Notes: a model not told the origin generated them from the letters alone. A DNA stretch of 64,000 bases from an uncultured Desulfobulbus sp. (GCA_963665445.1 OY762276.1:3278601-3342600); one strand, 5' to 3'; positions 10,386 through 26,634 are shown, counted from the stretch's first letter. Numbers and translations are program-made.

Positions 10386-10486
10386 GTCGTTCTCGTAAAA
10401 AGCTTCGAGAACGACGTTTCGAGCTTCGTAAGTTGCTGATTTCACGACGTGTGATATCCTGGCTTTTGACTTTTTACGAAGCCATC
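10386..10486. repeat. 101-bp MITE/REP-like repeat, copy 1
   Basis: Ends TCGTAAAAAG...CTTTTTACGA (perfect 10-bp inverted core within an imperfect 17-bp TIR). Left stem-loop GTCGTTCTCG-10nt-CGAGAACGAC. Confidence 0.85.
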
Positions 10487-10518
10487 TTCTTTGGGAACCA
10501 CTGAATTTTCCGAATTTC

Positions 10519-10690
10519 TGCGTATTCCAGAGCAAGCCGGCCACTGATTCCGTTTCAATCCGGCCGGGTATTCCGGTGGAAAGCGGCCACCCTGTTGAGG
10601 GGGTAGCGGCGCGGGATAATGACTGGTATCTGATCTCCTTTTTCGCAGGAGGGCAAGATGCCGTCGGAGAGATTATCCTTGCGCAAAATT
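10519..10690 (+). mobile_element. IS21-family left end relic with the first 11 codons of istA
   Basis: TGCGTATTCC terminus with internal CGGCC..ATTCC repeats. AGGAGGG RBS, then ATG 10658 MPSERLSLRKI (IstA-type N-terminus), cut at the repeat copy starting 10691. Confidence 0.75.
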
Positions 10691-10791
10691 GTTGTTCTCG
10701 TAAAAAGGCATGGGAACGACGTTTCGATCTTTGTAAGTTACTGATTTTACCGTAGATAACTTTCAGCTTTTTGACTTTTCAGGAGTCCATC
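10691..10791. repeat. 101-bp MITE/REP-like repeat, copy 2 (more diverged)
   Basis: GTTGTTCTCGTAAAAAG...GAACGACGTTTCG...GACTTTTCAGGAGTCCATC. AATT lies immediately on both sides. Confidence 0.8.
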
Positions 10792-10907
10792 AATTTTGGC
10801 CACAGCAATGAGGCAAATGACTGAAATTTTCGACAATCAGGGTATAGTATCGACGTCGCGCAAGTAACCATGCGTTATTCCATGCCCATTTCTCGACCAA
10901 ATCGTAA

Positions 10908-12278
10908 TTGAATGATCTCATGACAGATGCTGCTGCTTCCAAGGAAGGTTATTCCGGCGTCTCCACTGGAGTGGAGCAGTCCGTCGAAAACGCCCTTTTA
11001 ACCTGGCGTCGCAATGCGGTAAATATTTTCATGGCTTGCAGTGTTCTTGGTTATCTGCCGGCAATGATCCTGATGCTCTGTGGGCAGTGTCCACCGATAG
11101 CCTGGGCCGTTAAACTGCTGCTGTATTTTTCTTATCTTGTTCTCGTTTTTGCTGCATTTTTAAAGGCCGTAAATCATCGCCTCCGCCTCTATGCAATCCT
11201 CAGCTTGGCTTATTTAACTGCAATTGCCGGTGTCATTGCCTATCCCGGACCTTTTATACGTGCCCTGCCTGTGGCGTTGCCCGTCATTGGGCTGGTCCTC
11301 TCCGGCATCCGTTGCGGGCGTATAACCGCAGCGGCAAGCGCACTGCTGATACTCCTGACACCTTTTTTATCTACATTATTCCCTGTCAGGGCCAAAAGCC
11401 TGACAATCGGCGCTCAATCTTCCCCTGAATCCTTTGGCCTCATGCTCATGCAGGGCACTGGATTGACGGCCATGCTGCTGGCGCTGATGATCCTTTTGGA
11501 ACTGTTTTATAGATTCCTCGGTCAAGCATTGACAGATCAGCACCATGCGATGAACGAGGTTGAACGCAAAGTTGGCGAACTGACCAGGGCGCATGCTTCC
11601 TTGGCTCAGGAGGTCGACAAACGCCGAAAACTTGAACAAGAGCTCACCCGTATTGCCGATGAGGAGAAACGGCGTCTCGGTCTTGAAATACACGATGGGG
11701 TCTGCCAGCAGATTACGGGTGCCCTGTTGCGGTGCGAAGCCCTGGCGCTGCGACTGGATCGAGGGCAACCGGCCTCGCCCGACGATGTCAAAGCCCTTTC
11801 CACGCTCTTGGAGGAAGCAATCGATGAAGCCCATGGGGTCGCCAGGGGACTGTGCCCATTGGAAGCAGCCCCCAACGCAATCGAGTCGGCCATACGAACC
11901 CTTACCCGGCGTACGCAGCGCATCACCGGCATTCCATGCCGTCTTGTCACCACAGGTAACATTCACATCGACGACCAGATCAAGGCGCAGCATCTTTTCC
12001 GCATCGCTCAGGAAGCCATAAGCAATGCCGTCCGTCATGCAGGTGCGACCGCAATCAATGTCGAGTTGGCCATTGCTGAAAATCGTATTGTGCTCCAAAT
12101 CATCGACAACGGACACGGTCTGCCGGAAGTCTTACCCACCTGCGGAATGGGCCTGCGGACCATGGCGTGCCGGGCGCATCTGCTTGAAGGTGAATTTTCC
12201 GTCACCCCTCTCCCGCAGGGCGGGACCTGTATTCGCTGCACGGTGCCCCATTCACCTCCATCTCCGCCGTTTGCATAA
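10908..12278 (+). CDS. Membrane sensor histidine kinase, HisKA_3 (NarX/UhpB-like) class
   Basis: Multi-TM N-terminus, H-box RRLGLEIHDGVCQ, QEAISNAVRHA, DNGHG, GMGL. Start TTG 10908 or ATG 10920. Confidence 0.9.
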   Translation: MNDLMTDAAASKEGYSGVSTGVEQSVENALLTWRRNAVNIFMACSVLGYLPAMILMLCGQCPPIAWAVKLLLYFSYLVLVFAAFLKAVNHRLRLYAILSLAYLTAIAGVIAYPGPFIRALPVALPVIGLVLSGIRCGRITAAASALLILLTPFLSTLFPVRAKSLTIGAQSSPESFGLMLMQGTGLTAMLLALMILLELFYRFLGQALTDQHHAMNEVERKVGELTRAHASLAQEVDKRRKLEQELTRIADEEKRRLGLEIHDGVCQQITGALLRCEALALRLDRGQPASPDDVKALSTLLEEAIDEAHGVARGLCPLEAAPNAIESAIRTLTRRTQRITGIPCRLVTTGNIHIDDQIKAQHLFRIAQEAISNAVRHAGATAINVELAIAENRIVLQIIDNGHGLPEVLPTCGMGLRTMACRAHLLEGEFSVTPLPQGGTCIRCTVPHSPPSPPFA

Positions 12279-12303
12279 CTCAATTGTATTGTAGAGGCTC
12301 TGT

Positions 12304-12963
12304 ATGCTGCATGACCCGTTGCCGACATCCCAAGCTATTCGTATCGTGATCGCAGATGATCATCCCGCCGTCTGCCAGGGACTGCAACTGCTGTTGGAGC
12401 CCGAGGGAATCACGGTCTGTGCCCAGGCAAGCGGGCGAGACGAGGCCCTGGCTCAGGTGAAGAAGCATCGCCCAGACCTTGTTCTGGTGGATCTTTCCCT
12501 CGGCGACGACGATGGCATCCTCCTCGTCCGGGATCTGCAAAAGCTTTCTGTCCCCTCACTCGTGTACACCATGCACGAAGATGCGCATCATATCGAGGCG
12601 GCCTTTGCTGCCGGCGGCAAGGGATATGTCACCAAGCGGGAAGTGCATCGCATACTCGTGCAGGGCATCCGCGAAACAGCCACCGGTTGCCGTTTTGTCA
12701 GTCCGCGGGCGGCGTTGTCCCTGGCCGATCGGGTCGCTGAACGTCGTGCGGCCCCTCTCCTTCTCGAGTTGAGCGGTCAGGAGCAAAACGTCTACCGACT
12801 TTTGGGCCAAGGTGAAGGGACCTCGGATATTGCCCGGGAAATGAAGATCAGTGCCCGTACGGTCGAGTCCTACTACGCCCGCATTTTGGTCAAATTGGAG
12901 CTGCAAACCATGCGCGACCTCCGCCGCCACGCCATCGACCACTATCAAAAACAAGGCGAATAA
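12304..12963 (+). CDS. NarL/LuxR-family response regulator
   Basis: REC (IADDHP, DLVLVDLSL, YVTK) plus LuxR HTH (LSGQEQNV...IAREMKISARTVESY). Confidence 0.93.
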   Translation: MLHDPLPTSQAIRIVIADDHPAVCQGLQLLLEPEGITVCAQASGRDEALAQVKKHRPDLVLVDLSLGDDDGILLVRDLQKLSVPSLVYTMHEDAHHIEAAFAAGGKGYVTKREVHRILVQGIRETATGCRFVSPRAALSLADRVAERRAAPLLLELSGQEQNVYRLLGQGEGTSDIAREMKISARTVESYYARILVKLELQTMRDLRRHAIDHYQKQGE

Positions 12964-12981
12964 CGCCTGCCGCCCGCTTCC

Positions 12982-13048
12982 TGTAGGGGATTTCCCCTAC
13001 ATTTCCTCCGGGGTTTTCCCCACACGAATGCAGGGAATTCCCTCTGCA
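12982..13048. promoter_or_regulatory. Two related 20-bp palindromes, candidate response-regulator operators
   Basis: TGTAGGGGATTTCCCCTACA (12982-13001, 18/20 symmetric) and TGCAGGGAATTCCCTCTGCA (13029-13048), upstream of the REC-MBL-RND operon. Confidence 0.6.
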
Positions 13049-13154
13049 GACAACCTCTGCGTTTCCTGATACCTTTTTCCCCAAACATTCCCTTTTCCCG
13101 ACCATCTTCAGTCACGATTTTCAGGCATTATTTTTGGTAACGGAGGTTTGCACG

Positions 13155-13553
13155 ATGAGCAGACCAACCCACCCGACGGTGCTTTTGGTGGATGACCATC
13201 CCGCTGTGCGCGATGCCATGGCCCAACTGCTTGAGGCAAACAATATAGCGGTATGCGGCCAGGCCAGCGGGCTTGAGGACGCCATGGCCCTCCTCGACCT
13301 GCGGCGTCCCGATCTGGTGCTGGTGGATCTTCTTCCCGGTGACGAGGGGTTGAAGCTGGTGGGCCATCTGCAGAGCCGGGGAATACCCGCGGTGGTCTGC
13401 TCTTCTTGCCGGAATACGGAGTACACGCGTCGGGCTCTGGATGCCGGAGCCCGGGCATACGTGGCCAAGGAGGATGCGGCACAGGCCCTGCCGCGCATCC
13501 TGAGAGATGTACTGAACGGCTGGGTCCTGATCAGCCCACGGGCGGCGGAATGA
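13155..13553 (+). CDS. Stand-alone receiver (REC-only) protein, paralogous to the REC of the upstream regulator
   Basis: LLVDDHP, PDLVLVD, YVAK, ends at ISPRAAE*. GGAGG RBS. Confidence 0.85.
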   Translation: MSRPTHPTVLLVDDHPAVRDAMAQLLEANNIAVCGQASGLEDAMALLDLRRPDLVLVDLLPGDEGLKLVGHLQSRGIPAVVCSSCRNTEYTRRALDAGARAYVAKEDAAQALPRILRDVLNGWVLISPRAAE

Positions 13554-13603
13554 TCGTTTTTCCGGACGCACACAACCAACCCGCATATGGAGAGGAGCAC
13601 CCC

Positions 13604-15196
13604 ATGAAATCCCAGGAACAAGAAAACGAGCATGAATTTACCCGACGCGAAGTCATGAAATATGCCGGCATGGCCTTGGGAGGGCTGGCCTTTGGCGGCA
13701 CGTTCATCGGTGGCGGTGTCGGCCAGGCTAAGGCGGATCTTGTCTGCGACAGTTCGTTTTATCCGCAAGATACGTATAACCCCGAAAGATATACCTATTT
13801 CGAAAAGCTCAACGATATCATCCCATGGGGGCTGGATAGCCAATACAACCTTATCGGCGAGCCACTTTTGGAGGACGAGATGCGGATCACCTTCCTCGGG
13901 TCGGTGGTGCCCTCCGCACGGCGGGCACAGCAGGAGATGAGCGTCTTTGTGGAGGTGGGATGGGATGCGACCAACCAATGTCCGTTGGACCAGTTCGTCT
14001 TTGACTGCGGCTCCGGGGTCTGCGCCAATTACGGTTCGGCAGGAATCAGCTACGGCCGCATGGACAAGATCTTTCTCGCGCACCTTCATGCCGACCACAT
14101 GAGCGACCTGGCCCACATCTACTGTTTCGGCCCATCGAGCGACCGCAAATCCCCCCTCTATGTCTGGGGGCCCGGCCCCTCGGGGGTGAGAAGTCCTCGT
14201 CCACCTCGTCGACTGTACAACGACGGGACCAAAGCCTTCTGCGAGCACCTGCGCGAGGCCATGCGATGGCATAGCGAGAGTTTCAGTTTTGAATCCACCT
14301 CTTGGGAGGATTCCGCGCAGAACCTCCCCACCCAGAAAAGCTGGGGCTTACCCGTCCCGCCCAAGCCCGTCGCGGATGATCCGGCAGACGACGGCTATGC
14401 CCTGGTTCCCATCGAGCTGGATTGGACCAAATACGGGGCCAAGAAGGATGACAACGTTGCCTATCACAACAAGGCAACCGGGGTCAAGATCACCCATTTT
14501 CCGGTGATCCACACCCGCAGGGGCGCTATCGGCTACAAGCTCGAATGGCAGACCCCCAATGGCAAGGTCTTGACGATGATCTATACCAGCGACACCCGCC
14601 CCGAATGGCATTGCGTCGATCAGGCCATCAACGCAGACAAGCACGGCAAACCCCGCGGTGTCGACGTCTTCATCCACGAAATGGGCCTGCCTCCCGAAGT
14701 GTGGGCCATGAAAAACGCCGGACTCCCCGGGCCGGTGGACAATGCGACCTTCCAGGCCACGGTCGACGACATGAGCACCATTATCAACTGTTCCCACACC
14801 CCGCCAGGAGCCTTCGGTTATCTCCTCGGCCAGATCAGCCCCCGTCCGCGGCTCACCGTGGCCACCCATTTTCCGGTAGCCGACGACACGGTGCATTGCG
14901 CCCTGGAAAGCATCAAAAAATATGTCCCGGATATCACCTGGACGGAAGACTATTATAACGACAATGACGATATTGCCTGGTCCTTTGATCTCATGGTCCT
15001 ACGCGTCATTGCAAGCCAGGACAAGATCATCCGTTGCAAGGCCCAGGTCAACGACTTCAGTTTTTCGCCGGTGAGCAAGTATTATGCGATGAAAGACCCC
15101 AAATACATGGATTCCAGAAGTCAGATTGACACCTCGAGCGAGATTCCGGCCACCGAAGACGATGGAACACAAAATTACTGCGAAAGCGGTTATTGA
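13604..15196 (+). CDS. Tat-exported MBL-fold metallohydrolase (RNase Z/arylsulfatase-like)
   Basis: Twin-arginine signal TRREVMKYAGMALGG. Motifs RITFLGS, FDCGSG, HLHADH, HTRRG, SDTRP, HTPP, THFP. GAGGAG RBS before ATG 13604. Confidence 0.85.
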   Translation: MKSQEQENEHEFTRREVMKYAGMALGGLAFGGTFIGGGVGQAKADLVCDSSFYPQDTYNPERYTYFEKLNDIIPWGLDSQYNLIGEPLLEDEMRITFLGSVVPSARRAQQEMSVFVEVGWDATNQCPLDQFVFDCGSGVCANYGSAGISYGRMDKIFLAHLHADHMSDLAHIYCFGPSSDRKSPLYVWGPGPSGVRSPRPPRRLYNDGTKAFCEHLREAMRWHSESFSFESTSWEDSAQNLPTQKSWGLPVPPKPVADDPADDGYALVPIELDWTKYGAKKDDNVAYHNKATGVKITHFPVIHTRRGAIGYKLEWQTPNGKVLTMIYTSDTRPEWHCVDQAINADKHGKPRGVDVFIHEMGLPPEVWAMKNAGLPGPVDNATFQATVDDMSTIINCSHTPPGAFGYLLGQISPRPRLTVATHFPVADDTVHCALESIKKYVPDITWTEDYYNDNDDIAWSFDLMVLRVIASQDKIIRCKAQVNDFSFSPVSKYYAMKDPKYMDSRSQIDTSSEIPATEDDGTQNYCESGY

Positions 15197-15324
15197 TGCT
15201 CGATGAACCTTGCTTGCCGTTGTGCTGTTGCATGGGGCCGGCGCAATGAAATCTGTCTCATCACCCCGCCTGCCGGCATCGTGGTCCGATGGCCGGCAGG
15301 CAACGAAAAGAGAGGAGTCTGCCA

Positions 15325-16512
15325 ATGGCACCCCGACCTCGACCGAAACGTTCCTTGCCCACCTCCCTCCTGGTCCTGACGGGGAGTCTGGCCCTGGCCC
15401 TTGGCCTTTGGGCCTGCAAACAGGAAAAGGCTGCTCCGGCGGCATCCTCCCAGCCGCCACGCGTTTCGGTGCTGGAGATCACCCCTCGGGATATGCCGGT
15501 GAGCTTTACCTATGTCGCCCAGACGCAGAGCTCGCATCTGGTCAATATTCAGGCCAGGGTAAGCGGCTTTCTCGACCGACAGCTCTACACCGAAGGCGCG
15601 GTGGTCAAGGCCGGCCAAGTCCTTTTTCGGCTCGACGCCAAACCCTTTCAGGTTCAGCTCGACCAGGCCCAGGCCGTGCTGAGCAAGCAGGCCGCGGCCC
15701 TGGAGACCTCACGCAAAAACCTGGCGCGAACCAAGCCCCTGGTCAAACAGAACGCACTTGCGCTCAAGGACCTGGATGATGCCACCGGTCAGTTCCAATC
15801 GGCGGCCGCCGGGGTGGAGCAGGCCAAGGCCCAGGTGGAAGCGGCCAAGCTCGATCTCTCCTACACCACCATTACCTCTCCGGTGACCGGCGTCAGCAGT
15901 TCGGCCCGACAGACGGAAGGCACCTACATCAGCCCCCAGAACAGCCTCCTGACGACCGTTGCCGTTCTTGATCCCATCTGGGTCAATTTCAATATCTCCG
16001 AAAACGAGATGCAACGCTACCGGGATGAGATCGCCAAAGGGCTGCTCATCGCCCCGAAAAACAGGGACTATGCCGTCCAGGTCATCCTTGTCGACGGTTC
16101 GGCCTTTCCGCACAGCGGGCACATGACCTTCGCCGATCCCTCCTACGATCCCCAGACCGGCACCTTCCTCGTTCGCGCCAGCGTTCCCAATCCGGACAGC
16201 GTGCTGCGCCCCAACCAATATGTGCGGGTGCGCCTCACCGGCTCCGTCAGGCCCAGGGCGATTCTCGTCCCGCAGCGGGCGGTGCAGCAGGGAGCCAAAG
16301 GCCATTTCGTGTGGCTCATCGATACCAACGACACCATCGAACAACGCCCGGTGGTGGTCGGGGACTGGCAGGGAGATAATTGGTTTATTGCTGAAGGGTT
16401 GTCCAGCGGCGAACGGGTCGTGGTCGACGGCACCCTCATGCTCCAGCCGGGCATGAAGGTGCAGGTGGCACCGGCAACAGCGGCAAGCCACGACAAACCG
16501 GTCGGCCAATAA
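15325..16512 (+). CDS. RND efflux periplasmic adaptor (MFP), lipoprotein
   Basis: Lipobox LWAC, IQARVSGFL, VKAGQVLFRLD, TITSPVTG, DPQTGTFLVRA, VPQRAVQQG. Confidence 0.93.
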   Translation: MAPRPRPKRSLPTSLLVLTGSLALALGLWACKQEKAAPAASSQPPRVSVLEITPRDMPVSFTYVAQTQSSHLVNIQARVSGFLDRQLYTEGAVVKAGQVLFRLDAKPFQVQLDQAQAVLSKQAAALETSRKNLARTKPLVKQNALALKDLDDATGQFQSAAAGVEQAKAQVEAAKLDLSYTTITSPVTGVSSSARQTEGTYISPQNSLLTTVAVLDPIWVNFNISENEMQRYRDEIAKGLLIAPKNRDYAVQVILVDGSAFPHSGHMTFADPSYDPQTGTFLVRASVPNPDSVLRPNQYVRVRLTGSVRPRAILVPQRAVQQGAKGHFVWLIDTNDTIEQRPVVVGDWQGDNWFIAEGLSSGERVVVDGTLMLQPGMKVQVAPATAASHDKPVGQ

Positions 16513-16525
16513 CAAGGAGGCCTCC

Positions 16526-19500
16526 ATGTTCTCCCGATTTTTCATCAAGCGGCCGATTTTCGCCACCGTGGTCGCCATTATCATCTGTCTGGCAGGCCTG
16601 GTCTCCATGAACGCGCTCCCGGTCGAGCAGTATCCGACCATCACCCCGGTGCAGGTGACGGTCTCGGCAACCTATCCGGGCGCGGATTCCCAGACCCTGG
16701 CCGACTCGGTGGCCGCGCCCATCGAGGCGCAGATCAACGGCGTGGACAACATGCTCTATATGACCTCAGCCAGCTCCGCCAACGGCCAGTTGACCCTGAC
16801 GGTCTACTTCTCCCTGGATACCGATCCGGATATCGCGCAGGTGCAGGTGCAGAACCGGGTCAACCTCGCCACCCCCCAGCTCCCTGAAGCGGTTTCGCAA
16901 CTTGGTGTCTCGGTGCAGAAAAAGGCCTCCTCGATCATGATGCTGATCGGCATTTTTGCCAGGGAGGAACGCTACAGCAGCAACTACATCGCCAATTACG
17001 CCAATGTCTATGTCCTGGATGCGATCAAACGGGTGCCCGGAGCCGGTCAGGCGCAGATTATGGGCGCCCCTGATCAGGCCATGCGCATCTGGATGAATCC
17101 CGACCGCATGGCATCCCTGGGCATTACCACCAGCGATATACAGCAGGCGGTGGCCAGTCAGAACGCCCTGCTCGGCGCCGGTCAAATCGGACAGAAACCC
17201 ACCAGCGGTCCGGTGGAGATGACCTTTCCGGTGGTCACCCAGCAGCCCTTCACCGACCCTTCGCAATACGGAGAAATCATCCTCCGCGCCAACCAGGACG
17301 GAGGGGGCATCGTCCGCTTGAAGGACGTGGCGCGGACCGAGGTCGGTCTACGACAGTACATCATCGACGCCAAGCTCAACGGCACCCCGGCCACCTTCAT
17401 TGCCATCTATCAGCAGCCCGGTGCCAATGGGCTTGAGGTCTCCAAGGCGGTCCGCCAGGCCCTGGAGCAGATGAGACCCCGTTTTCCCCATGGCATGGAT
17501 TACGTCATTTCGCTGGACACCACCGATTTTGTCCGCCTATCCATTGATGAGGTCGTTCACACCCTGTTTGAGGCCATCCTCCTGGTGGTCCTGGTGGTCT
17601 ATCTCTTTTTGCAGAGTTTCCGCACCACCATCATCTGCGCGGTTGCCATCGTCGTGCCCCTGATCAGTACCTTCAGCGGCATGCTGGCCCTGGGATTTTC
17701 CATCAACCTGCTTACCCTGTTCGGCCTGGTGCTCGCCATCGGCATGGTGGTGGACGACGCCATCGTCGTGGTCGAAAATGTCGAACGCAACATGGCGCAG
17801 TTCCATCTCCCGCCCAAGGAGGCGACCATTCGCGCCATGGGCGAAATCTCCGGCTCGCTGGTCGCGGTGGTTTTGGTGATGGCCTCGGTGTTCATCCCGG
17901 CGGCCTTTCTTCCCGGGACCACGGGACAGCTCTACAAACAGTTCGCCATCACCATCGTGGTCTCGGTCGCGGTTTCCGGATTCGTGGCCCTGACCCTGAC
18001 CCCGGCCATGTGCGGGCTGCTCCTGAGGCACTGTCAACCGCCGACCCGCGGATTTTTCGCCTGGTTCAATCGCGGGGTCGATGCCCTGACCCAGGGTTTT
18101 GGTCAGGCCGTGACCCTGGTTATCCGCCGTATGGGCCTGGCCTTCCTAGTGCTGGCGGTGCTGATATACGCAATCGTCCATCTCTTTGAGGTCCTGCCGA
18201 CTAGCTTTGTCCCCAACGAGGATCAGGGCTACGTCATGGCGGCGATCGTCATGCCGGACTCGTCCAGCCTCGACCGGACCGAGGATGTGGCCGACCGGGT
18301 CGAAGGAATTTTCAAAACACTGCCCGGAGTCGACACCCGCACCCAGCTGACCGGCTACAGCCTGATCGACAGCGGGTTCAAGACCAATGCCGGCACATTT
18401 TTCGTCACCCTCAAACCCTTTGACCAGCGATACGGATCGATCAAACAGGCTCGAGCGGAAAATGCCCGAGCCGTGCTGATGGGGCTGCACAAGGAGGCCG
18501 CCTCTATTCAGGAGGGTGTGGTCATTCCGGTGGCACCGCCTGCGATCCCTGGCATCGGCACCACCGGCGGCTTTGAATTCTGGATTCAGGACACCGGGGC
18601 TGGCCAACCGGCCAGACTGGACGGACTGACCCGCGCATTTTTGGCCAAGGCCCATGCCCGGCCGGAACTTACCGGCCTCAACAGTACCTTCCGCGCCACC
18701 ACCCAACAGCTGCGCGCGGAGGTGGACCGTGAAAAGACAAGCCTGCTCGGGGTGCCCATCACCGATGTCTACAGCGCCATCCAGGCGCAGTTCGGTTCGC
18801 TCACGGTCAGTCAGTTCAACCAGTTCAGCAGGGTCTGGTGGGTCATTTTGCAGTCCGAACCCAAATATCGTCAGGATCCCGGGGACCTGACCCGTCTCTA
18901 TGTCCGCTCCAACCAGGGGGATATGGTGCCGCTGTCGGCCCTGGTCGCCACCCACTGGGTGAGCGGACCGGACCTGTTGCCGCATTTCAACGGCTTTCCC
19001 GCCGCCAAGGTGAGCGGCAGCGCCGCCGCCGGTTACAGTTCCGGTCAGGCGATCGCCGCCATGGAAGAGGTTGCCCGCGAGGTGCTGCCCGCGGGCTATA
19101 CCTTTGCCTGGTCGGGCCTGGCCTTCGAGGAGAAGCAGTCCGGCGGCACCTCCATGCTGGCCTTTGTGTTCGGCCTGATCATCGTCTTTCTCGTTCTCGC
19201 GGCCCAGTATGAATCCTGGACCCTGCCGGGGACGGTGATGATGGCCGTTCCCTTTGGCGTGCTCGGGGCCTTGACGGCGAACTGGCTGCGCGGACTGGAA
19301 AACGACGTCTATTTTCAGATCGGCCTGCTGGTACTGATCGGTCTGGGGGCCAAAAACGCCATCCTGCGGGTGTCCTTTGCGGTCGAACTGCGGCGGCAGG
19401 GAAAAACGATCATGGAGGCGACCATCGAGGCGGGGGAGCAACGCCTCAGGCCCATCATCATGACCTCGCTCGCCTTTGCCTTTGGTGTGCTGCCCCTGGC

Positions 19501-19741
19501 CATTGCCATGGGGGCCGGTGCCAATGCGCGCCACTCCATCGGCACCGGCATCATCGGCGGCATGATCGGCGAAACCACCCTGGCCATGTTGTACGTACCG
19601 CTGTTGTTTTATCTCTTCGACCGTTTCAGCGAAGGCAAACAGACAAAACAGCGTAAACAGGCATCGCTGCCCGCCACTGCCCCGTCCACCAGCGGCGATG
19701 TCGCGGCAACTGATCCGGAGACGGCTTCGGAGGAACAGTGA
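16526..19741 (+). CDS. RND efflux permease, HAE1 (AcrB/MexF-like)
   Basis: FFIKRPIFATV, GMVVDDAIVVVENVERNM, GLGAKNAIL, RLRPIIMTSLAF; 1071 aa. Confidence 0.96.
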   Translation: MFSRFFIKRPIFATVVAIIICLAGLVSMNALPVEQYPTITPVQVTVSATYPGADSQTLADSVAAPIEAQINGVDNMLYMTSASSANGQLTLTVYFSLDTDPDIAQVQVQNRVNLATPQLPEAVSQLGVSVQKKASSIMMLIGIFAREERYSSNYIANYANVYVLDAIKRVPGAGQAQIMGAPDQAMRIWMNPDRMASLGITTSDIQQAVASQNALLGAGQIGQKPTSGPVEMTFPVVTQQPFTDPSQYGEIILRANQDGGGIVRLKDVARTEVGLRQYIIDAKLNGTPATFIAIYQQPGANGLEVSKAVRQALEQMRPRFPHGMDYVISLDTTDFVRLSIDEVVHTLFEAILLVVLVVYLFLQSFRTTIICAVAIVVPLISTFSGMLALGFSINLLTLFGLVLAIGMVVDDAIVVVENVERNMAQFHLPPKEATIRAMGEISGSLVAVVLVMASVFIPAAFLPGTTGQLYKQFAITIVVSVAVSGFVALTLTPAMCGLLLRHCQPPTRGFFAWFNRGVDALTQGFGQAVTLVIRRMGLAFLVLAVLIYAIVHLFEVLPTSFVPNEDQGYVMAAIVMPDSSSLDRTEDVADRVEGIFKTLPGVDTRTQLTGYSLIDSGFKTNAGTFFVTLKPFDQRYGSIKQARAENARAVLMGLHKEAASIQEGVVIPVAPPAIPGIGTTGGFEFWIQDTGAGQPARLDGLTRAFLAKAHARPELTGLNSTFRATTQQLRAEVDREKTSLLGVPITDVYSAIQAQFGSLTVSQFNQFSRVWWVILQSEPKYRQDPGDLTRLYVRSNQGDMVPLSALVATHWVSGPDLLPHFNGFPAAKVSGSAAAGYSSGQAIAAMEEVAREVLPAGYTFAWSGLAFEEKQSGGTSMLAFVFGLIIVFLVLAAQYESWTLPGTVMMAVPFGVLGALTANWLRGLENDVYFQIGLLVLIGLGAKNAILRVSFAVELRRQGKTIMEATIEAGEQRLRPIIMTSLAFAFGVLPLAIAMGAGANARHSIGTGIIGGMIGETTLAMLYVPLLFYLFDRFSEGKQTKQRKQASLPATAPSTSGDVAATDPETASEEQ

Positions 19742-19742
19742 T

Positions 19743-21197
19743 ATGCGCGCACTCATGGTATTGGCAGCGGCGGTGTTGTTCACGGGCTGTACGGTCGGGC
19801 AGGATTATGTCAGGCCGGTGATCGATGTGCCGGCCGCGTTCAACAACGCAGCGCAGAGCGCCCGGCAGACGGTAAACCTGACCTGGTGGCAGCAGTTTCA
19901 CGATCCCATGCTCGACGCGTTGATCGTCGAAGCGCTCAACAACAACCGCGATCTCAAGGTTGCCATCGCCAATATCGAGCAGGCGGCGGCGCTGCTCACC
20001 GAGTCCCGCTCTTCCCTGTACCCGCAGATAGGATACGGCGGCACCGGCACCCGCGAGCGGGCCAGCGAAACAGACGCCGCACGCTTGTATTCGGTTGTGA
20101 AAAATCCCCGTTCCTCCTACCAGTCCCTGGTCAGCGCCAGTTGGGAAATAGACCTGTGGGGACGCATCCGTCGACTGTCGGAGGCGGCGCAGGCGCAACT
20201 CCTGGCCACCGAGGCGGCGCAGCAAGGGGTGCGCCTCACCCTGGTGGCCTCGGTAGCAAGCGGCTATATCCAGCTGCTCGGCTTGGATGAACAACTGCAT
20301 GTCGCCGAGCGCACCCAGGCCGCCTATGGTGCCTCGCTCGATATTTTCAACAAGCGCTACAAATACGGCCAGGTTTCGCAGATGAATGTGGTCCAGGCAC
20401 GCTCCCAGTATGAAACCGCATCCGCGTCCATCCCGCCGTTGCGCCTGCAGATCGAACAGACCGAACATGCGTTGTCGGTCCTGTTGGGCCGCAATCCGGG
20501 GTCGATCAGGCGGGGCGGCACGATCAATGCGCTGGCAATGCCGGCTCTCCCCGCAGACCTGCCTTCCGACCTGCTCGTCAACCGGCCCGATATCCGCCAG
20601 GCCGAAGAACTGCTGATCGCCGCCAATGCCAATATCGGCGCGGCACGGGCGCTCTACTTCCCCACCATCACCCTGACCGGTGCATCTGGCTATGCAAGCG
20701 GCGATCTCTCGAAGCTCTTCAGGGGATCGTCCCGAACCTGGAGTTTTGCCGGGTCCATTACCGGGCCTCTCTTCAATGGAGGCGCCATCGCCAGCGGGGT
20801 CAAACAGGCTCAGGCCGCGCAAAAGGCGGCCCTTTTCACCTACGAATCAACGATCATCAACGCCTTTGCCGATGCCGAAAATGCCCTGGCCGCCCAGCGC
20901 CACCTCGCCGAACAGGCCAAGATCCAGGAGAGTCTGGTCCGGGACAACAGCGAGTACGTACGCCTGGCGCACCTGCAATACGATGGCGGATATGTACCCT
21001 ATTCGACCGTCCTCCAGGCCGAACAGCAACTTTTCCCCTCAGAGATCAACTATGCCCAAACGCGCACCAATCTCCTGAGCGCGCTTGTCGATATCTACAA
21101 AGCCATGGGCGGGGGATGGCAGTCGGCGGGGGATGGCCCTGATCGGGAAATCGCCCCGCTGGACACTGCCAAAAACACGAAAACAATCATGCCGTAA
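19743..21197 (+). CDS. RND outer membrane factor lipoprotein (NodT/OprM-like)
   Basis: Lipobox LFTGC, WWQQFHDPML, SWEIDLWGR, LLVNRPDIRQAE, IYKAMGGGW. Confidence 0.93.
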   Translation: MRALMVLAAAVLFTGCTVGQDYVRPVIDVPAAFNNAAQSARQTVNLTWWQQFHDPMLDALIVEALNNNRDLKVAIANIEQAAALLTESRSSLYPQIGYGGTGTRERASETDAARLYSVVKNPRSSYQSLVSASWEIDLWGRIRRLSEAAQAQLLATEAAQQGVRLTLVASVASGYIQLLGLDEQLHVAERTQAAYGASLDIFNKRYKYGQVSQMNVVQARSQYETASASIPPLRLQIEQTEHALSVLLGRNPGSIRRGGTINALAMPALPADLPSDLLVNRPDIRQAEELLIAANANIGAARALYFPTITLTGASGYASGDLSKLFRGSSRTWSFAGSITGPLFNGGAIASGVKQAQAAQKAALFTYESTIINAFADAENALAAQRHLAEQAKIQESLVRDNSEYVRLAHLQYDGGYVPYSTVLQAEQQLFPSEINYAQTRTNLLSALVDIYKAMGGGWQSAGDGPDREIAPLDTAKNTKTIMP

Positions 21198-21248
21198 CCA
21201 AAGGACGGCTACGGACAATCAAAAAATCCTAACGAGGTAGAGGCAGGA

Positions 21249-21872
21249 ATGACTGTAAAGAATGTGTTTTCAGCTGTTGTGGCCATGGGACTGGTGGCGA
21301 TGGGATTATTGGCTTGCACTAAGAGTCAGCCACCCTCTTTTGCACGGCAGGAGCCGGATACGGAGAAAGCCGTTTCCTCAGCAGGTCTCGATGTGCAGCG
21401 TTTCGAGGTCAAGAACACCATCGCCACGGTCGAGGCTGTTGACCTGAAAGCAAGGAAGCTGACCCTGCGCAATGTTGAAGGCCGAGTTTTTGTGATTCAT
21501 CTGGGCGAGGAAGCCGTCAATCTTCCCCAGGTGAGGAAGGGGGATGTGGTTGAGCTTACCTTTGGTCATGAGTTGGAAGTTCGGATGGCTGAACCCGGTG
21601 AATTCCGCAACGAGCAGTCAGTCTTCGTCGGCGGCGCCCAACCTGGGGCCAGACCTCGCGGTGTCGGTATAACCCAAACCAATATAACCGCCAGAATTCT
21701 TGCCCTGGATCGAACCAATCAGTTGGTCAAACTCGAGTTTGCCGATGGCCCGATTGCGGTGGTGAAGGTGCAAAATCCGGCCAACCTCGACAAGGTCGCT
21801 GTGGGGGACAACCTGGCCATAAGCTCCATCGAGGTCGTGGAAGTGAAGGTGAAGAAAGGCGGCAAACGATAA
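21249..21872 (+). CDS. Conserved lipoprotein of unknown function (two beta-rich repeats)
   Basis: Lipobox LLAC. Internal duplication ATVEAVDLKARKLTL...LPQVRKGDVV / ARILALDRTNQLVKL...LDKVAVGDNL. Confidence 0.75.
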   Translation: MTVKNVFSAVVAMGLVAMGLLACTKSQPPSFARQEPDTEKAVSSAGLDVQRFEVKNTIATVEAVDLKARKLTLRNVEGRVFVIHLGEEAVNLPQVRKGDVVELTFGHELEVRMAEPGEFRNEQSVFVGGAQPGARPRGVGITQTNITARILALDRTNQLVKLEFADGPIAVVKVQNPANLDKVAVGDNLAISSIEVVEVKVKKGGKR

Positions 21873-21904
21873 TGAAGAATACCATCTTGTTCAGGAGCCA
21901 TGTC

Positions 21905-22588
21905 ATGAAAAAAATACACCTCGTACTGACCGGAATTCTCACCTTTGCCTGCTGCACCCTTGTCGGATGCGCAGCCACCTCGCAGACATCCCCAGGGGCA
22001 CACTCAGGATTTTTGCTCAACTATCCACCGTTTCACCCCGGACCTCCAGAGGGGGTTGATCAGGTCTACACCAAGCCGGGAATGGACCTGAGCAGATATC
22101 ATCGGGTGATGGTGGATGAGGTCCAGTTTTATCTCAAGCAGGGGGCGGCCGCACAAGGCATTCAGGCCAGTGAACTGCGGGAGCTCGCCGATACCTGTCA
22201 TAAGTCGTTGTTCGCGGCCCTGGGCAACGTCTATCCGCTGGTGACGGAACCTGGCCCGGATGTTCTGCGCATCCGCCTGGCGCTCACCGATATCGAGACC
22301 AGCAACCCGACCAGAAACGCCATTTCCACTGTCCTGCCGGTGGGCCTGGCGGTGAGCGTGGTCAGGAAAGCCGCCACCGGCTCCTATACCGGGGTGGGCG
22401 GTGCGAGCATGGAGGTGGAGCTCCTCGATTCCATGACCGGCGAACGCCTTGCCGCCGCCATCGACACCTTCAACGGTTCGAAGATGAGCGGATTCAGCAA
22501 GCTTGGGGCCACCGAAGAGGCCTTTGCTTTCTGGGCCAAGCGCCTCAGGGTAACCCTCGACAGGGCGCATGGCACATCGGTGCAATGA
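21905..22588 (+). CDS. DUF3313-family lipoprotein
   Basis: Lipobox LVGC, HSGFLLNY, PGPDVLRIRLALTD, MEVELLDSMTGERLAAAID, FWAKRL. AGGAG RBS. Confidence 0.8.
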   Translation: MKKIHLVLTGILTFACCTLVGCAATSQTSPGAHSGFLLNYPPFHPGPPEGVDQVYTKPGMDLSRYHRVMVDEVQFYLKQGAAAQGIQASELRELADTCHKSLFAALGNVYPLVTEPGPDVLRIRLALTDIETSNPTRNAISTVLPVGLAVSVVRKAATGSYTGVGGASMEVELLDSMTGERLAAAIDTFNGSKMSGFSKLGATEEAFAFWAKRLRVTLDRAHGTSVQ

Positions 22589-22662
22589 AGGTGACGGAAT
22601 ACGGATCCGTATCAATACCCTTGTCTTATACGGAATTTTTTTTCATCCAGAGGAGGTCATCA

Positions 22663-25005
22663 ATGAACACTCGTTGCATCGTTTTCGCACTGATACTATT
22701 GATGCTGCATGGCGTGGCGGGTACGGTGGGTGCCACGACACCGGGGCCCGACGATCCAGGCTGGCCCAGAGTCATCAAGAAAAACGGCGAGGAACTGACC
22801 ATTTATCAGCCACAGGTCGATTCGTGGCAGCAATTTAAACGTCTGCATGCCCGCTTTGCCCTGGCCATCAAGGAGGACAACTCGAAAAAGGAGACCTTTG
22901 GCGTGGCGGAGATCGATGCCGAGACCGTGGTTGATCAGGCGGCTCGCCTCGTCACCATCCTTCCTCAGAACCGAACCCTGCGTTTTCCCAACACCACCGA
23001 GGCCCAGGCGGCTGCATTGCAGCGTACGATTGCGCAATTGCATCCACCGAGACAATCACTGACCGTCTCCCTGGATCGCCTGCTGGCCTACCTGGACCCG
23101 GCAAATCAACAGCTGCAGCCCTCTGTGCAGTTGAACCTCGATCCGCCAAAAATCTTGTACAGCAACAAACCGGCCATCCTGGTCATGATCATGGGGGACC
23201 CGCAACTCAAGGCGGTGCACCAAGACAACAACGATCTGATGTTCGTGGCGAACACCAATTGGGATATTTTCTATGAAACCGCGTCGCAGCGTTATTTCCT
23301 CCTCCTTGAGGATCACTGGCTTGCAGCAACCGATCTGATCAATGGACCATGGTCGGCGGTATCGAGTCTGCCTTCAGGACTCTCTTCGCTACCCAATGAT
23401 GATAATTGGACGGAAGTGCGCAAAAACATCCCGGGGAAACCAATCAGGGAAGTTCCGGTGGTTCGGGTCAGCAAGGGCCCGGCAGAACTCATTTTGACGC
23501 GCGGCGAGCCCACCTATGGTCCCATCCCGGGCACCAGGCTCATGCGAATCACCAATTCCGATGCGGTGCTGTTTCTCCACTCCGGTGAAGGCAGATATTA
23601 CTTCCTGGTTGCCGGTCGCTGGTTCCGTTCCCCCAGCCTTGACGGTCCCTGGTCGATAGCCGGCAATGATCTTCCCAAGGATTTCGCCCGCATTCCCGAG
23701 AGCGATCCCTCCGCCTTTGTCAAGGCCTCCGTTCCCGGAACGGTCGAGGCCAGGGATGCGGTGCTGCTGGCCTCCGTGCCCAGCACCATTGCCGTGGATG
23801 TCAACAAACCGCCCAAGGTGAAAGTGGTCTATAAGGGGTCACCGAAATTTCAGGTCATTCCAACCACCACGGTTCAGTATGCGACCAACAGCTCCAGCGC
23901 CGTGTTTTTGGTCAACCATGCCTACTACTGCTGCGAGGGGGGAATTTGGTTTACTGGCAATGGTCCCACCGGCCCCTGGGTCTACTGCACCAACGTACCT
24001 GCAGCTATTTACACCATTCCGCTGTCCCATCCCGCCTACAACGTCACCTACGTCACCGTCTACGAGAGCACTCCCGCCACGGTGGTCTATGCCCAGACTG
24101 CAGGGTATTACGGCGAGTATGTCAATACCAACGGCGTGTTGATGTTCGGTGCCGGGATGCTGGCTGGTGCCCTGCTGCATGAGGCCTGGGATGAGTATTA
24201 CCATTACCCTGTTCCATACTCCTACGGCTGGGGCGCCATTTATCACTTTGGCTTTGGCGGGTACTATCGTCCGCCCTATATCCATTATTACGGCCCGTAT
24301 CGAGGTGCCGGTTTTGCCACGGTCTACAACCCGTACACCGGAACCTATGCCCGTGGGGGCTATGCCTATGGACCTGGTGGCAGCGCCGCCTGGGGACGGG
24401 CCTATAACCCGGCCACCGGCGTCCGGGGTGGTGCGGTGCGGGTGAACACCCCCTATGGCTCGATGGGCAGATTCAGCCGCTATAATCCCAGCACCGGGAC
24501 TGCCGTCCATGGCGGTTATCGAAGCGGACCCCAGGGGGCTGTGGCCGGCGTGGCAACAAATCATGGCACCGGTGCCGTTGCCTGGGATACCGCCCACGGC
24601 CAGGGTGCGGTGGTCAAAGGGCGTAACGGCAACGTCTATGCCGGAAAGGATGGCAATGTCTACCGCAGGGACAGTAACGGTGACTGGAGTTCCAATAAGG
24701 GGGACGGCGGGTGGCAACCCGTCAACAAACCGGAACCCAAACAGGGACTCCAGGGGCAGACACGTAAATCATCGCCTCCTGCCCAGCCGCAGCACAAGCA
24801 GGTTCCACGAAATCATGCCACCCCACAGCCAGATTACGCCCGTTTTCAGCAACCTGGGCACAAGGATCAGTTTCGGCCAAGCACCCGCGAATTGGACTGG
24901 CAAGCGCAGGCACGTTCGCGTGGGAATTTCATGAATGAGAACAGGCGGAGCTTCGAGAGGCAGATGGAAGGCCCAGCAAGCCGGGAGAAGAGGCGATGGA
25001 GATAA
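22663..25005 (+). CDS. Large secreted protein of the family often labelled carbohydrate-binding V/XII-like, with Gly/Tyr-rich C-terminal repeats
   Basis: Signal peptide, WPRVIKKNG..LTIYQPQVDSW, NTNWDIF, VAGRWFRS..LDGPW, three YNPxTG repeats. GAGGAGG RBS before ATG 22663. Confidence 0.7.
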   Translation: MNTRCIVFALILLMLHGVAGTVGATTPGPDDPGWPRVIKKNGEELTIYQPQVDSWQQFKRLHARFALAIKEDNSKKETFGVAEIDAETVVDQAARLVTILPQNRTLRFPNTTEAQAAALQRTIAQLHPPRQSLTVSLDRLLAYLDPANQQLQPSVQLNLDPPKILYSNKPAILVMIMGDPQLKAVHQDNNDLMFVANTNWDIFYETASQRYFLLLEDHWLAATDLINGPWSAVSSLPSGLSSLPNDDNWTEVRKNIPGKPIREVPVVRVSKGPAELILTRGEPTYGPIPGTRLMRITNSDAVLFLHSGEGRYYFLVAGRWFRSPSLDGPWSIAGNDLPKDFARIPESDPSAFVKASVPGTVEARDAVLLASVPSTIAVDVNKPPKVKVVYKGSPKFQVIPTTTVQYATNSSSAVFLVNHAYYCCEGGIWFTGNGPTGPWVYCTNVPAAIYTIPLSHPAYNVTYVTVYESTPATVVYAQTAGYYGEYVNTNGVLMFGAGMLAGALLHEAWDEYYHYPVPYSYGWGAIYHFGFGGYYRPPYIHYYGPYRGAGFATVYNPYTGTYARGGYAYGPGGSAAWGRAYNPATGVRGGAVRVNTPYGSMGRFSRYNPSTGTAVHGGYRSGPQGAVAGVATNHGTGAVAWDTAHGQGAVVKGRNGNVYAGKDGNVYRRDSNGDWSSNKGDGGWQPVNKPEPKQGLQGQTRKSSPPAQPQHKQVPRNHATPQPDYARFQQPGHKDQFRPSTRELDWQAQARSRGNFMNENRRSFERQMEGPASREKRRWR

Positions 25006-25416
25006 AAAACAAGGGACACAATGGAACAAATTTGGGACACATATTTGGTGTCAACTCCTGTTTTTATTCGCGAATGATTTAAATTTCTGGAAACCTACGA
25101 AGCCCCTGCTTTCGTAGCGAGAACCGGGGCTTTCAGCAGTGACCCCAATTTTTTGGAGACAGAATCGAGGAGCGATTAATGTGGATACTGGAAGTTTCGA
25201 TCTGTTTTTCGTAGGCAAGGATTGAGGATGCTCCTGATACTCTTTTAGGAGAGGGGTTTTGTGAAAATAAACGCCGACCATGAAAATCAGGATCGGAGGT
25301 GCATAGCAGATCCCCACTTCATCCGCCCATTCGCAAATGCCAATTGACAGCAGGCCCCAATTTACAGTTACTCGGTCATTAGGCCTGATTGACCGTTTAT
25401 TATTACATAAAATTTA

Positions 25417-26415: not shown

Positions 26416-26532
26416 CTTATCCACATGAATTAACGCAAAATAATAGCTATCTAATTTTCTATACTGCGTGATTTTTGAGGAATCGGTTCCGTACCTCATA
26501 CTCGTTTACGAGGAGGGAGGTTGCCACTGTTT

Positions 26533-26634
26533 GTCGTTTTCGTAAAAAGCCCCGAGAACAACGCTTCGATCTTCACAACATGTTGAACATATGAGATATA
26601 ACTCCTAGAATCCCAACTTTTTAACGAGGTCATC
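26533..26634. repeat. About 102-bp MITE/REP-like repeat, copy 4 (diverged)
   Basis: GTCGTTTTCGTAAAAAG...CGAGAAC...AACTTTTTAACGAGGTCATC. Same ends and length as the other copies. Confidence 0.7.

Follow-up and report, generated by a model that had tools for sequence, protein, structure and literature searches.

A putative laterally transferred island joining a sensor-hydrolase module and an RND pump module in an uncultured Desulfobulbus sp.

The analysed window is a 64,000-nucleotide stretch of DNA from an uncultured Desulfobulbus sp. (GCA_963665445.1, OY762276.1:3278601-3342600), and all positions are counted from its first letter. A sequence-only reading had described ten co-oriented genes at 10908-25005. 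All ten were confirmed on the + strand and their family assignments hold (Pfam, NCBIfam), with only minor corrections, namely shifts of several start codons. The genes and the features between them are the following:

10908-12278, + strand: sensor histidine kinase, HisKA_3 and HATPase_c (Pfam, NCBIfam)
12304-12963, + strand: NarL/LuxR-type response regulator, REC and GerE (Pfam, NCBIfam)
12981-13048, no strand: putative operator array (palindromes)
13155-13553, + strand: single-domain receiver (Pfam)
13604-15196, + strand: predicted Tat-signal MBL-fold hydrolase, 530 aa, PNGM-1/GntH-like, RNase Z lineage
15268-15300, + strand: GC-rich stem-loop in the MBL-MFP intergenic gap
15325-16512, + strand: RND membrane-fusion lipoprotein (MFP), MexX/MexC-like
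16526-19741, + strand: HAE1-type RND permease (NF000282, relay residues)
19743-21197, + strand: NodT-family outer-membrane factor (OMF) lipoprotein (TIGR01845)
21249-21872, + strand: 207-aa lipoprotein, no family match
21905-22588, + strand: DUF3313 lipoprotein (PF11769)
22663-25005, + strand: 780-aa protein with a signal peptide, from a large unnamed family

The intergenic gaps measure, in gene order, 25, 191, 50, 128, 13, 1, 51, 32 and 74 nt, and a crude consensus test revealed no terminator-like site on the + strand in any of them.

The genes lie within a 14.3-kb block, both ends of which were found as near-identical DNA in another bacterium, on two contigs of one metagenome sample (SRR27751817). 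Contig L104 matches window positions 10792-14509 (95.9% identity) and contig L022 positions 20140-25054 (96.8% identity). The block and the repeats around it are located as follows:

10389-10791, + strand: 98-nt interspersed repeat, two copies (10389-10486 and 10694-10791)
10792-25054, + strand: putative transferred block, the region common to contigs L104 and L022 from another organism
25966-26633, + strand: another pair of 98-nt repeat copies (25966-26063 and 26536-26633), right of the block

Homology ends sharply at 10792 and 25054. The flanks on L104 and L022 (a BMC operon and DACNV/purT) are unrelated to those of the block in the source genome; the BMC flank has only a partial match (67-68%), at a different place in this genome, and purT is absent from this complete genome. 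The presence of the block in another organism between unrelated flanks bears out the earlier view of the cassette as one unit. The block has a GC content of 0.589, the remainder of the window 0.546. In the other organism, the recovered contigs do not cover the central part of the island (14509-20140), and therefore transfer of the whole block as a single piece is only probable. Neither an integrase or transposase gene within the block nor repeats at its borders were found. The second copy of the 98-nt repeat stops 1 nt short of the left homology border, and the stretch from the block to the right-hand copies contains degenerate ORFs. This repeat, scored in at least 45 copies genome-wide among 248 candidates, flanks the block in the source genome only.

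RND proteins at least 90% identical were revealed on other Logan contigs, and kinase-to-RND synteny is kept in L005 at only 72% DNA identity. A search of 150 further genomes of the order, 12 of them from the same genus, did not find the MBL gene; across the phylum it was found in 8 of 300 genomes. Judging from these sequence comparisons, 10792-25054 appears to be a self-contained island, moved by lateral transfer, in which two older gene modules are combined, A (kinase to MBL) and B (pump and envelope proteins).

The kinase of module A has six predicted N-terminal transmembrane segments and no large periplasmic loop or domain. PF07730, PF02518, PF00072 and PF00196 all score above their cut-offs, which places kinase and regulator among the HisKA_3/NarL-type two-component systems. 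The named equivalogs MctSR, NarXL, LiaSR, MadRS and UhpAB were rejected (best scores of 90-101 bits versus cut-offs of 300-700). The receiver ORF extends over 13134-13553, with the ATG at 13155 as the likelier start, and has a canonical DD...D...K pocket. A receiver or pseudo-receiver is located between the regulator and MBL genes in module A loci; in other lineages this place is taken by a degenerate receiver-like protein.

Positions 12984-12999, ahead of the receiver and MBL genes, form a perfect 7-2-7 palindrome (TAGGGGA-TT-TCCCCTA). The putative operator array also holds GGGGTTTTCCCC, and CAGGGAATTCCCTC followed by GCAGACAA. The palindrome core AGGGGAnnTCCCCT is unique within the genome of 5.08 Mb. 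Related palindromes were detected in the same position in L005, L039, L061, L068, L082, L059, L077 and L080; the palindrome is kept across phyla, in loci with a regulator sharing 40% identity or more with that of the island. No operator-type palindrome was found upstream of the MFP, lipoprotein or kinase genes. A co-oriented kinase and regulator were present at most 2.5 kb upstream of the MBL gene in 17 of 71 eligible loci, labelled as Acidobacteriota, Verrucomicrobiota/Kiritimatiellia, Planctomycetota, Armatimonadota, Anaerolineae (Chloroflexota) and Desulfobacterota, and this set recurs without the pump.

Near its N terminus the MBL has a twin-arginine motif, FTRREVMKYAG...GQAKA. It agrees with the definition of a Tat signal that we used (an N-terminal S/T-R-R-x-F-L-K-like motif, a hydrophobic stretch and an AxA site), and R14, R15 and the hydrophobic region are invariant in 26 homologues. 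So are the metal ligands H160, H162, D164, H165, H303, D330, H398 and H422, which include the HLHADH motif and align with the ligands of PNGM-1, as expected of the MBL-fold superfamily with its alpha-beta/beta-alpha fold and its HxHxDH motif followed by His, Asp and His ligands. PNGM-1 is also the best solved match (profile E 5e-31; Foldseek E 3e-17), followed by RNase Z and then by the MBL-type arylsulfatase; the structure model is of moderate confidence (pLDDT 66). The invariant twin arginine and the PNGM-1/RNase Z profile and fold matches thus agree with the exported RNase Z-lineage enzyme proposed earlier, and we predict a Tat-exported hydrolase of this lineage. The former label 'GntH-like' is sub-threshold: GntH (NF041257, guanitoxin cluster) is the best NCBIfam model, but its 205 bits, the score also of a Kiritimatiellia homologue, fall below the equivalog cut-off of 333 bits, and no guanitoxin genes are present at the island. 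No description of GntH activity was found in the open literature.

PNGM-1 (PDB 6J4N), an MBL from a metagenome, shows weak beta-lactamase and tRNase Z activity. Like the island enzyme, it has HxHxDH, the His/Asp ligands that follow it and the RNase Z-lineage motifs IHE and HT(S/P), but the two are only about 24% identical and differ in length (372 aa in PNGM-1 versus 530). Unlike PNGM-1, the island MBL has inserts around residues 195-275, a conserved C-terminal tail ending in NYxEDGY and an invariant Tat signal (the PNGM-1 match begins at residue 22), and it sits under a two-component system. RNase Z/ZiPD (ElaC) and the Pseudoalteromonas MBL-type arylsulfatase (PDB 8GYG), both of which catalyse ester hydrolysis, have the same fold lineage and metal site but are very distant (13-16% identity).

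Could the MBL be a cytoplasmic tRNase Z, its apparent signal peptide being an annotation artefact? It contains HEAT-like (IHEM) and HST-like (SHT) motifs of RNase Z type and is the best match in the genome to the RNase Z model, no canonical RNase Z reaching the cut-off. Yet this match is only 42.4 bits versus a cut-off of 292.95 (TIGR02651), the signal region is invariant as described above, and the enzyme is partnered with Tat-exported sulfatases. The failure to find its gene in the 150 related genomes shows that it is not a housekeeping enzyme of the lineage; since it is also predicted to be exported, it is hardly a tRNA-processing enzyme, and the tRNase Z explanation is scarcely credible.

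The commonest non-regulatory neighbours of the MBL gene are a sulfatase and its maturase. The gene of an orthologous Tat sulfatase (about 650 aa; 58-95% identity) adjoins it in nine loci, five of which also contain the anaerobic sulfatase maturase, while other loci contain alkaline phosphatases with an OlsF-like gene, or a 5'-nucleotidase. The sulfatase partner is absent from the source genome. Such neighbours indicate ester hydrolysis and fit the sulfate or phosphate ester chemistry suggested before; most likely, the MBL cleaves a phosphodiester or a sulfate ester. They also bear on the possibility of an antibiotic-resistance island, in which the MBL would hydrolyse beta-lactams or another antibiotic, together with a multidrug pump and under an envelope-stress sensor. 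PNGM-1, the closest solved relative, does hydrolyse beta-lactams in vitro, but its authors call this activity promiscuous, with kcat/Km around 10^2 M-1 s-1 (PMC6882493). The low identity to PNGM-1 and the weak matches to true subclass B3 beta-lactamase structures (Foldseek E 1.3e-3 or worse, TM-score about 0.2) speak against this explanation. Although Vgb-lyase-like proteins and MacB-type and MFS transporters occur beside the MBL gene in a few loci, and the catalytic core of the kinase weakly resembles LiaS and MadS, the prevailing neighbours are not resistance genes, and we consider a resistance island improbable.

Module B was assessed as an HAE1 pump by two features: three subunits above subfamily cut-offs and the AcrB-type residues D407, D408, K940, R971 and T978. 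The scores were 266 versus 94.9 for the MFP (TIGR01730), 1300 versus 1250 for the permease (NF000282) and 408.7 versus 210 for the OMF (TIGR01845), and the relay residues, recognised already in the sequence-only reading, are kept as D410/D411, K943, R973 and T980. A tripartite HAE1 RND efflux pump is thus predicted, similar in these respects to AcrAB-TolC, MexXY and MexCD-OprJ. The MFP ORF opens at 15289, with the real start at ATG 15325 behind GAGAGGAG; the OMF has a lipobox start at 19743.

Unlike those pumps, that of the island is followed by the lipoprotein, the DUF3313 lipoprotein and the 780-aa protein, which recur with related Desulfobacterota pumps; we know of no description of these proteins as pump partners. 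The DUF3313 protein (155.3 bits versus a gathering score of 26.1; lipobox LVGC) belongs to a family that adjoins RND pumps in 4 of 20 sampled loci, and in a fifth an OMF gene lies about 7 kb away. The 780-aa protein has an all-beta N-terminal part, YNPxTG repeats and a conserved Gly-rich hydrophobic stretch near residues 487-507, with no family match. A paralogous MFP-RND-OMF-lipoprotein-DUF3313 set is located at 4.68 Mb in the source genome, behind a sigma-54 activator and an ABM gene; its lipoprotein is 48% identical to the 207-aa protein and occupies the same position, and a paralog of the large protein lies 13 kb beyond. Sets of pump, lipoprotein and DUF3313 genes also recur in the absence of the MBL gene. 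The island copy of module B has neither a dedicated regulator nor the sigma-54 activator that adjoins its paralog.

An RND permease was found within 7 kb of the MBL gene in 3 of about 69 independent loci, versus about 2 expected from RND gene density; this adjacency is at chance level. The neighbourhood comparison proposed earlier for the MBL and DUF3313 homologues links the kinase and regulator to the MBL (17/71) and DUF3313 to RND pumps (4/20), but not the MBL to RND pumps. Because of this, and because each module recurs alone, the conserved functional unit appears to be the sensor-regulator-hydrolase set, the sensor-hydrolase link being the only widely conserved one. Coupling of hydrolase and pump would be specific to the island lineage. 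The distant Kiritimatiellia contig L080 contains DUF3313, kinase, regulator and MBL genes with a non-orthologous pump; its pump family and gene order differ from those of the island, and it assembled the same parts independently. Overall, the earlier reading is partly supported: its parts are real, but a general hydrolysis plus efflux system is not borne out.

The stem-loop at 15268-15300, within the 128-nt gap between the MBL and MFP genes, has no T tract after it; L005 retains it, with a single compensatory change from G-C to A-T (two sequences compared). Ahead of the lipoprotein gene, positions 21160-21187 weakly resemble a promoter.

It is possible, though we rather doubt it, that the island is a mosaic of independent operons that travel together with no functional coupling. 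Module A would then serve nutrient-ester scavenging, for instance as a periplasmic phosphodiesterase or sulfatase, and module B would be a general efflux/envelope unit with its own unrecognised promoter. The separate recurrence of the modules, the chance-level adjacency, the restriction of operator palindromes to the region upstream of the receiver and MBL genes, and the phosphatase, sulfatase and nucleotidase neighbours are consistent with such a mosaic. What it accommodates less well is that both modules fall inside the block borders in two organisms, that kinase-to-RND synteny persists in L005 despite the low DNA identity, and that a conserved hairpin but nothing terminator-like was detected between the MBL and MFP genes. 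In addition, module B of the island lost the sigma-54 activator found with its paralog, and L080 rebuilt the same combination with another pump family and gene order.

Our preferred, still tentative reading, to which we give a slightly less than even chance, is that of a two-module island under one envelope-sensing two-component system that combines hydrolysis, efflux and remodelling. A single switch for both modules is suggested because module B has no regulator of its own and no terminator was detected after module A. Module A would be a sensor-regulator-effector unit composed of the kinase, the NarL-type regulator, the receiver and an exported binuclear-metal hydrolase. The signal, probably an amphiphilic compound, may be sensed within the membrane; the phosphorylated regulator would bind the 7-2-7 palindromes at 12981-13048 and drive a transcript starting with the receiver and MBL genes. 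Since the MFP, lipoprotein and kinase genes have no operator palindrome upstream, any control of the pump must come by read-through from module A, which may extend into the pump genes. One envelope signal would then lead to periplasmic hydrolysis, plus efflux with envelope remodelling.

It can be further speculated, with a rather low probability, that the MBL family acts in the periplasm as the effector of a two-component regulon found across phyla and directed at natural amphiphilic or anionic esters (such as organosulfates, organophosphates or surfactant-like lipids), joined with an RND pump and DUF3313 lipoproteins in the island lineage and independently in Kiritimatiellia to give sense-hydrolyse-expel detoxification. 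If true, the PNGM-1/GntH branch of MBLs would thereby gain its first physiological role.

The island resembles LiaSR and MadRS (intramembrane-sensing HisKA_3/NarL systems that activate envelope defence) and BaeSR-MdtABC/AcrD (RND pumps controlled by a two-component system) in its polytopic kinase without a periplasmic domain, GerE-type regulator, putative 7-2-7 inverted-repeat operator and downstream pump, but the LiaS, MadS and NarX/NarL matches of its kinase and regulator are far below the cut-offs. It differs from LiaSR, MadRS and BaeSR in having an extra lone receiver, and its first regulated gene would encode an exported hydrolase in place of a pump or a LiaI-type protein.

The ten plus-strand genes that the sequence-only reading had placed in this region were confirmed together with their predicted products, with some start codons differing from the first description:

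10908–12278, + strand: histidine kinase (HK) with HisKA_3 and HATPase_c domains and six predicted transmembrane segments N-terminal to them
12304–12963, + strand: response regulator (RR), REC and GerE
start most likely at 13155, + strand: lone receiver, after the RR gene
13604–15196, + strand: MBL hydrolase of 530 aa with a twin-arginine leader (FTRREVMKYAG...GQAKA) and the motif HLHADH
start at 15325, + strand: MFP, above the NCBIfam subfamily cut-off
16526–19741, + strand: RND permease, above the NCBIfam subfamily cut-off
19743–21197, + strand: NodT-type OMF, above the NCBIfam subfamily cut-off
after the OMF gene, + strand: 207-aa lipoprotein of no family
after the 207-aa lipoprotein gene, + strand: DUF3313 lipoprotein (PF11769, 155 bits)
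22663–25005, + strand: 780-aa signal-peptide protein of no family

The intergenic gaps within this ten-gene block are 1–191 nt long, and a consensus scan revealed no plus-strand terminator-like site in any of them. The proton-relay residues ascribed to the permease are indeed present in their AcrB-type form (D410/D411, K943, R973, T980). The components of the block are all of known kinds and none of them is a new kind of machine. To our knowledge, what is new is the cross-phylum sensor–receiver–MBL unit with its operator, the association of the pump with DUF3313 and the lipoprotein, and the fusion of the sensor–MBL unit and the pump set into a putatively mobile block.

Exact-cluster look-ups led to two contigs of a single metagenome (SRR27751817). 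One of them (L104) is 95.9% identical in DNA to window positions 10792–14509 and the other (L022) 96.8% identical to 20140–25054; beyond these limits, similarity to the window ends. A microcompartment operon lies upstream in L104 and has only a partial match elsewhere in this genome, at 67–68%. Downstream in L022 there are DACNV and purT genes; neither DNA like this flank nor purT was found in the complete single-contig genome carrying the window. Since both block ends are matched and the flanks do not correspond, the same 14.26-kb stretch probably occupies two genomic contexts in organisms differing in gene content. The middle of the block (14509–20140) was not recovered from the SRR27751817 organism; RND proteins of at least 90% identity occur on other Logan contigs. 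The MBL gene was found in none of 150 other genomes of the order, 12 of them from the genus, and in eight of 300 genomes sampled across the phylum. A more distant version of the block (L005, 72% DNA identity) keeps the order kinase–regulator–receiver–MBL–MFP–RND.

The left border of the block is located 1 nt after the second copy of an interspersed repeat in this genome:

10389–10486, 10694–10791, 25966–26063 and 26536–26633: four direct copies of a 98-nt repeat, two on each side of the block

Genome-wide, this repeat has at least 45 scored copies among 248 candidates, and thus its flanking of the block may be incidental; it is absent at the corresponding junction in L104. The block borders showed no att-like repeats, and no integrase gene was seen. 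The segment from the right end of the block to the following repeat copy (25054–25966) contains degenerate minus-strand ORFs with only a faint transposase-like match (E 0.067), and Pfam did not confirm them as transposase genes.

The MBL family is compact and highly conserved. A 90%-clustered database yielded more than 1,100 homologues; at 50% identity only 80 clusters have E of 1e-30 or better, and identity across phyla is 48–76%. The labels of the genomes that carry it include Acidobacteriota, Verrucomicrobiota/Kiritimatiellia, Planctomycetota, Desulfobacterota, Synergistota and Chromatiaceae, and a metagenome scan for closer relatives returned only short contigs with identity of 69% or less. 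Across 26 homologues, neither the twin arginine nor any of the MBL metal ligands varies. Among solved structures, PNGM-1 is the best match (profile E 5e-31; Foldseek E 3e-17, with a model pLDDT of 66); it has been discussed as an evolutionary bridge from tRNase Z to the B3 beta-lactamases. RNase Z/ZiPD ranks second and an MBL-type arylsulfatase (8GYG) third; matches to true B3 lactamases are only weak. [quoted passage not shown] The GntH model, suggested by the sequence-only reading as a label for such proteins, scores 205 bits against a cut-off of 333, and no open paper mentions GntH and guanitoxin together.

A role of the MBL as tRNase Z was rejected: the protein is predicted to be exported by Tat, its score of 42 bits falls short of the cut-off of 293, and a search of related genomes did not find the gene. 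The rejection holds even though the complete genome has no canonical RNase Z (TIGR02651) above the cut-off. The family is a tightly conserved sister of PNGM-1 with a Tat signal, a dedicated two-component system and a conserved operator, and this wiring, together with sulfatase and phosphatase neighbours, argues against tRNA processing.

The best clue to the chemistry of the hydrolase is provided by its neighbour genes elsewhere. In nine loci (L044, L046, L047, L049, L055, L056, L060, L084, L100) an MBL homologue adjoins an orthologous Cys-type sulfatase of ~650 aa that also carries a Tat signal and is 58–95% identical across Planctomycetota and Desulfobacterota; five of the nine contain an anaerobic sulfatase maturase as well. 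This sulfatase partner was not found in the present genome. Two alkaline phosphatases, YibE/F and an OlsF-like acyltransferase lie upstream of the MBL gene in L049 and L056, and a 5'-nucleotidase in L037 and L047. The MBL is predicted to be exported and to hydrolyse esters, with phosphodiesters or sulfate esters as its most likely substrates. The combined Tat, two-component and sulfatase/phosphatase context makes the substrate of this family tractable to study. The neighbour tally across the MBL loci also includes four Vgb-lyase-like proteins, and secreted NHL propellers of this type were seen directly downstream of the MBL gene in three Desulfobacterota loci (L032, 5126–6541; L036, 1927–3273; L078, 9404–10744).

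In total, 86 MBL loci were analyzed, 71 of them with enough upstream sequence, and in 17 of these 71 a HisKA_3 kinase and a GerE regulator are located directly upstream in the same orientation. The two are fused into one protein in L004, and two metagenome contigs provided further kinase–regulator–MBL cases without any pump. The regulator and MBL genes are usually separated by a gene for a small protein, which is a canonical receiver in the window, L005 and L104, and degenerate receiver-like in L004, L006, L031, L060 and L101. On one 3.9-kb contig (L130, 1262–2689 and 3218–3922) two tandem MBL paralogs follow a window-type regulator (58% identity); neither the space between the paralogs nor the short flanks of the contig contain a pump.

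The 191-nt gap preceding the receiver gene contains three palindromes:

12984–12999: perfect 7-2-7 palindrome TAGGGGA-TT-TCCCCTA
second palindrome of the same gap: GGGGTTTTCCCC
third palindrome of the same gap: CAGGGAATTCCCTC then GCAGACAA

A similar palindrome occupies the equivalent position in all loci whose regulator is at least 40% identical to that of the window. Palindromes of the operator type were detected in L005, in Armatimonadota (L039), in Acidobacteriota (L061, L068, L082) and in Verrucomicrobiota/Kiritimatiellia (L059, L077, L080). The operator core AGGGGAnnTCCCCT has a single occurrence in the 5.08-Mb genome. The remaining gaps of the block lack it, with no site upstream of the pump, lipoprotein or kinase genes, and one-mismatch sites are no commoner genome-wide than a control pattern. 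There is good comparative evidence that the regulator would control the receiver–MBL promoter, and we infer that it does bind the palindrome. As a by-product of the operator search, the motif AGGGGAATTGCCCT was found to recur every ~217 nt outside the window (G000:C1:726002-729121 of the same genome), suggesting that a longer unit is arrayed in tandem there.

The pump half of the block was compared with 20 DUF3313 loci sampled from the phylum. An RND tripartite pump stands directly beside the DUF3313 gene in four of them, one with a permease 82% identical to that of the window, and a fifth has an OMF gene ~7 kb away. One of the four is a paralogous locus of this genome at 4.68 Mb, outside the window:

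G000:C1:4680400-4707046 (loci L125, L123, L011): sigma-54 activator, ABM, MFP, RND, OMF, lipoprotein (48% identical) and DUF3313 (64% identical), in this order

A paralog of the 780-aa protein (61% identical) lies ~13 kb beyond this pump locus. From the survey and the paralogous copy it follows that the pump–lipoprotein–DUF3313 set is a recurrent module by itself and the 780-aa protein a looser associate. The latter has more than 4,000 homologues, which stand alone in most Desulfobulbales. It is adjacent to DUF3313 in L022, in a Desulfobacterales contig (L010) and in Desulfomicrobium (L008), where a sigma-54 activator and ABM again lie upstream, and it is within 14 kb of DUF3313 in the paralogous locus. 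A fixed pair of the two was rejected: both families are present in only three genomes of the 300-genome phylum sample, this one included, and only here on the same contig. The association between the two is thus weak.

Nothing in Pfam, NCBIfam or the PDB matches the 207-aa lipoprotein, and it shows no homology to the small proteins that neighbour the large protein in L008 or L010. The 780-aa protein, for which AlphaFold gave a poor model (pLDDT 56), has no significant match in the PDB by fold or by sequence; a local YceB/TULIP-like match (E 0.1) is a lead at most. Its family is strongly conserved without a Pfam model (alignment A3) and contains a repeated YY..G.WF....GPW motif, a conserved Gly-rich hydrophobic stretch and YNPxTG repeats. 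A member is labelled 'carbohydrate-binding family V/XII' in one database source. DUF3313 appears in the literature in gene lists only. With its companion lipoprotein it becomes a candidate accessory partner of RND pumps, with which both recur in Desulfobacterota.

The hydrolysis-plus-efflux system proposed by the sequence-only reading stood in part, for the block shared between organisms and the joins in L005 and L080 speak for it, while the general MBL–RND link is at chance level. An RND permease lies within 7 kb of the MBL gene in three of ~69 independent loci, against ~2 expected at a density of eight RND genes per 5 Mb, and the association was rejected as a general rule. Two of these three pumps appear to have a small regulator gene of their own. 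The main rival reading, that the two modules merely travel together, has an appreciable chance, well short of even. Coupling within the island is favoured by the block borders, which enclose both modules in two organisms, by L005, which retains their join at 72% DNA identity, and by the pump module, which in the window is without the sigma-54 activator that accompanies its paralog. In the MBL–MFP gap there is only a GC-rich hairpin lacking a T tract; the hairpin is retained in L005 with one compensatory change and a conserved ribosome-binding site 3' of it.

Our leading, still tentative interpretation, close to an even chance yet below it, is that of a transferred island in which the sensor–regulator pair switches the hydrolase and, through putative read-through, the pump and its envelope partners. 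An intramembrane-type sensor and the regulator would turn on the exported ester hydrolase, and read-through from the hydrolase genes would also turn on the efflux pump and the envelope proteins. The island is a case of module assembly, with sensing, hydrolysis and efflux modules joined and subsequently, in all probability, moved between anaerobes. The Kiritimatiellia contig L080 has the order DUF3313–kinase–regulator–MBL–OMF–MFP–RND and the same operator type as the window, with a different RND subfamily and gene order; it is an independent assembly of the same parts and was counted for coupling. By raw count, ignoring relatedness, DUF3313 is present in six of the eight MBL-bearing genomes of the phylum sample versus 41 of 301 overall.
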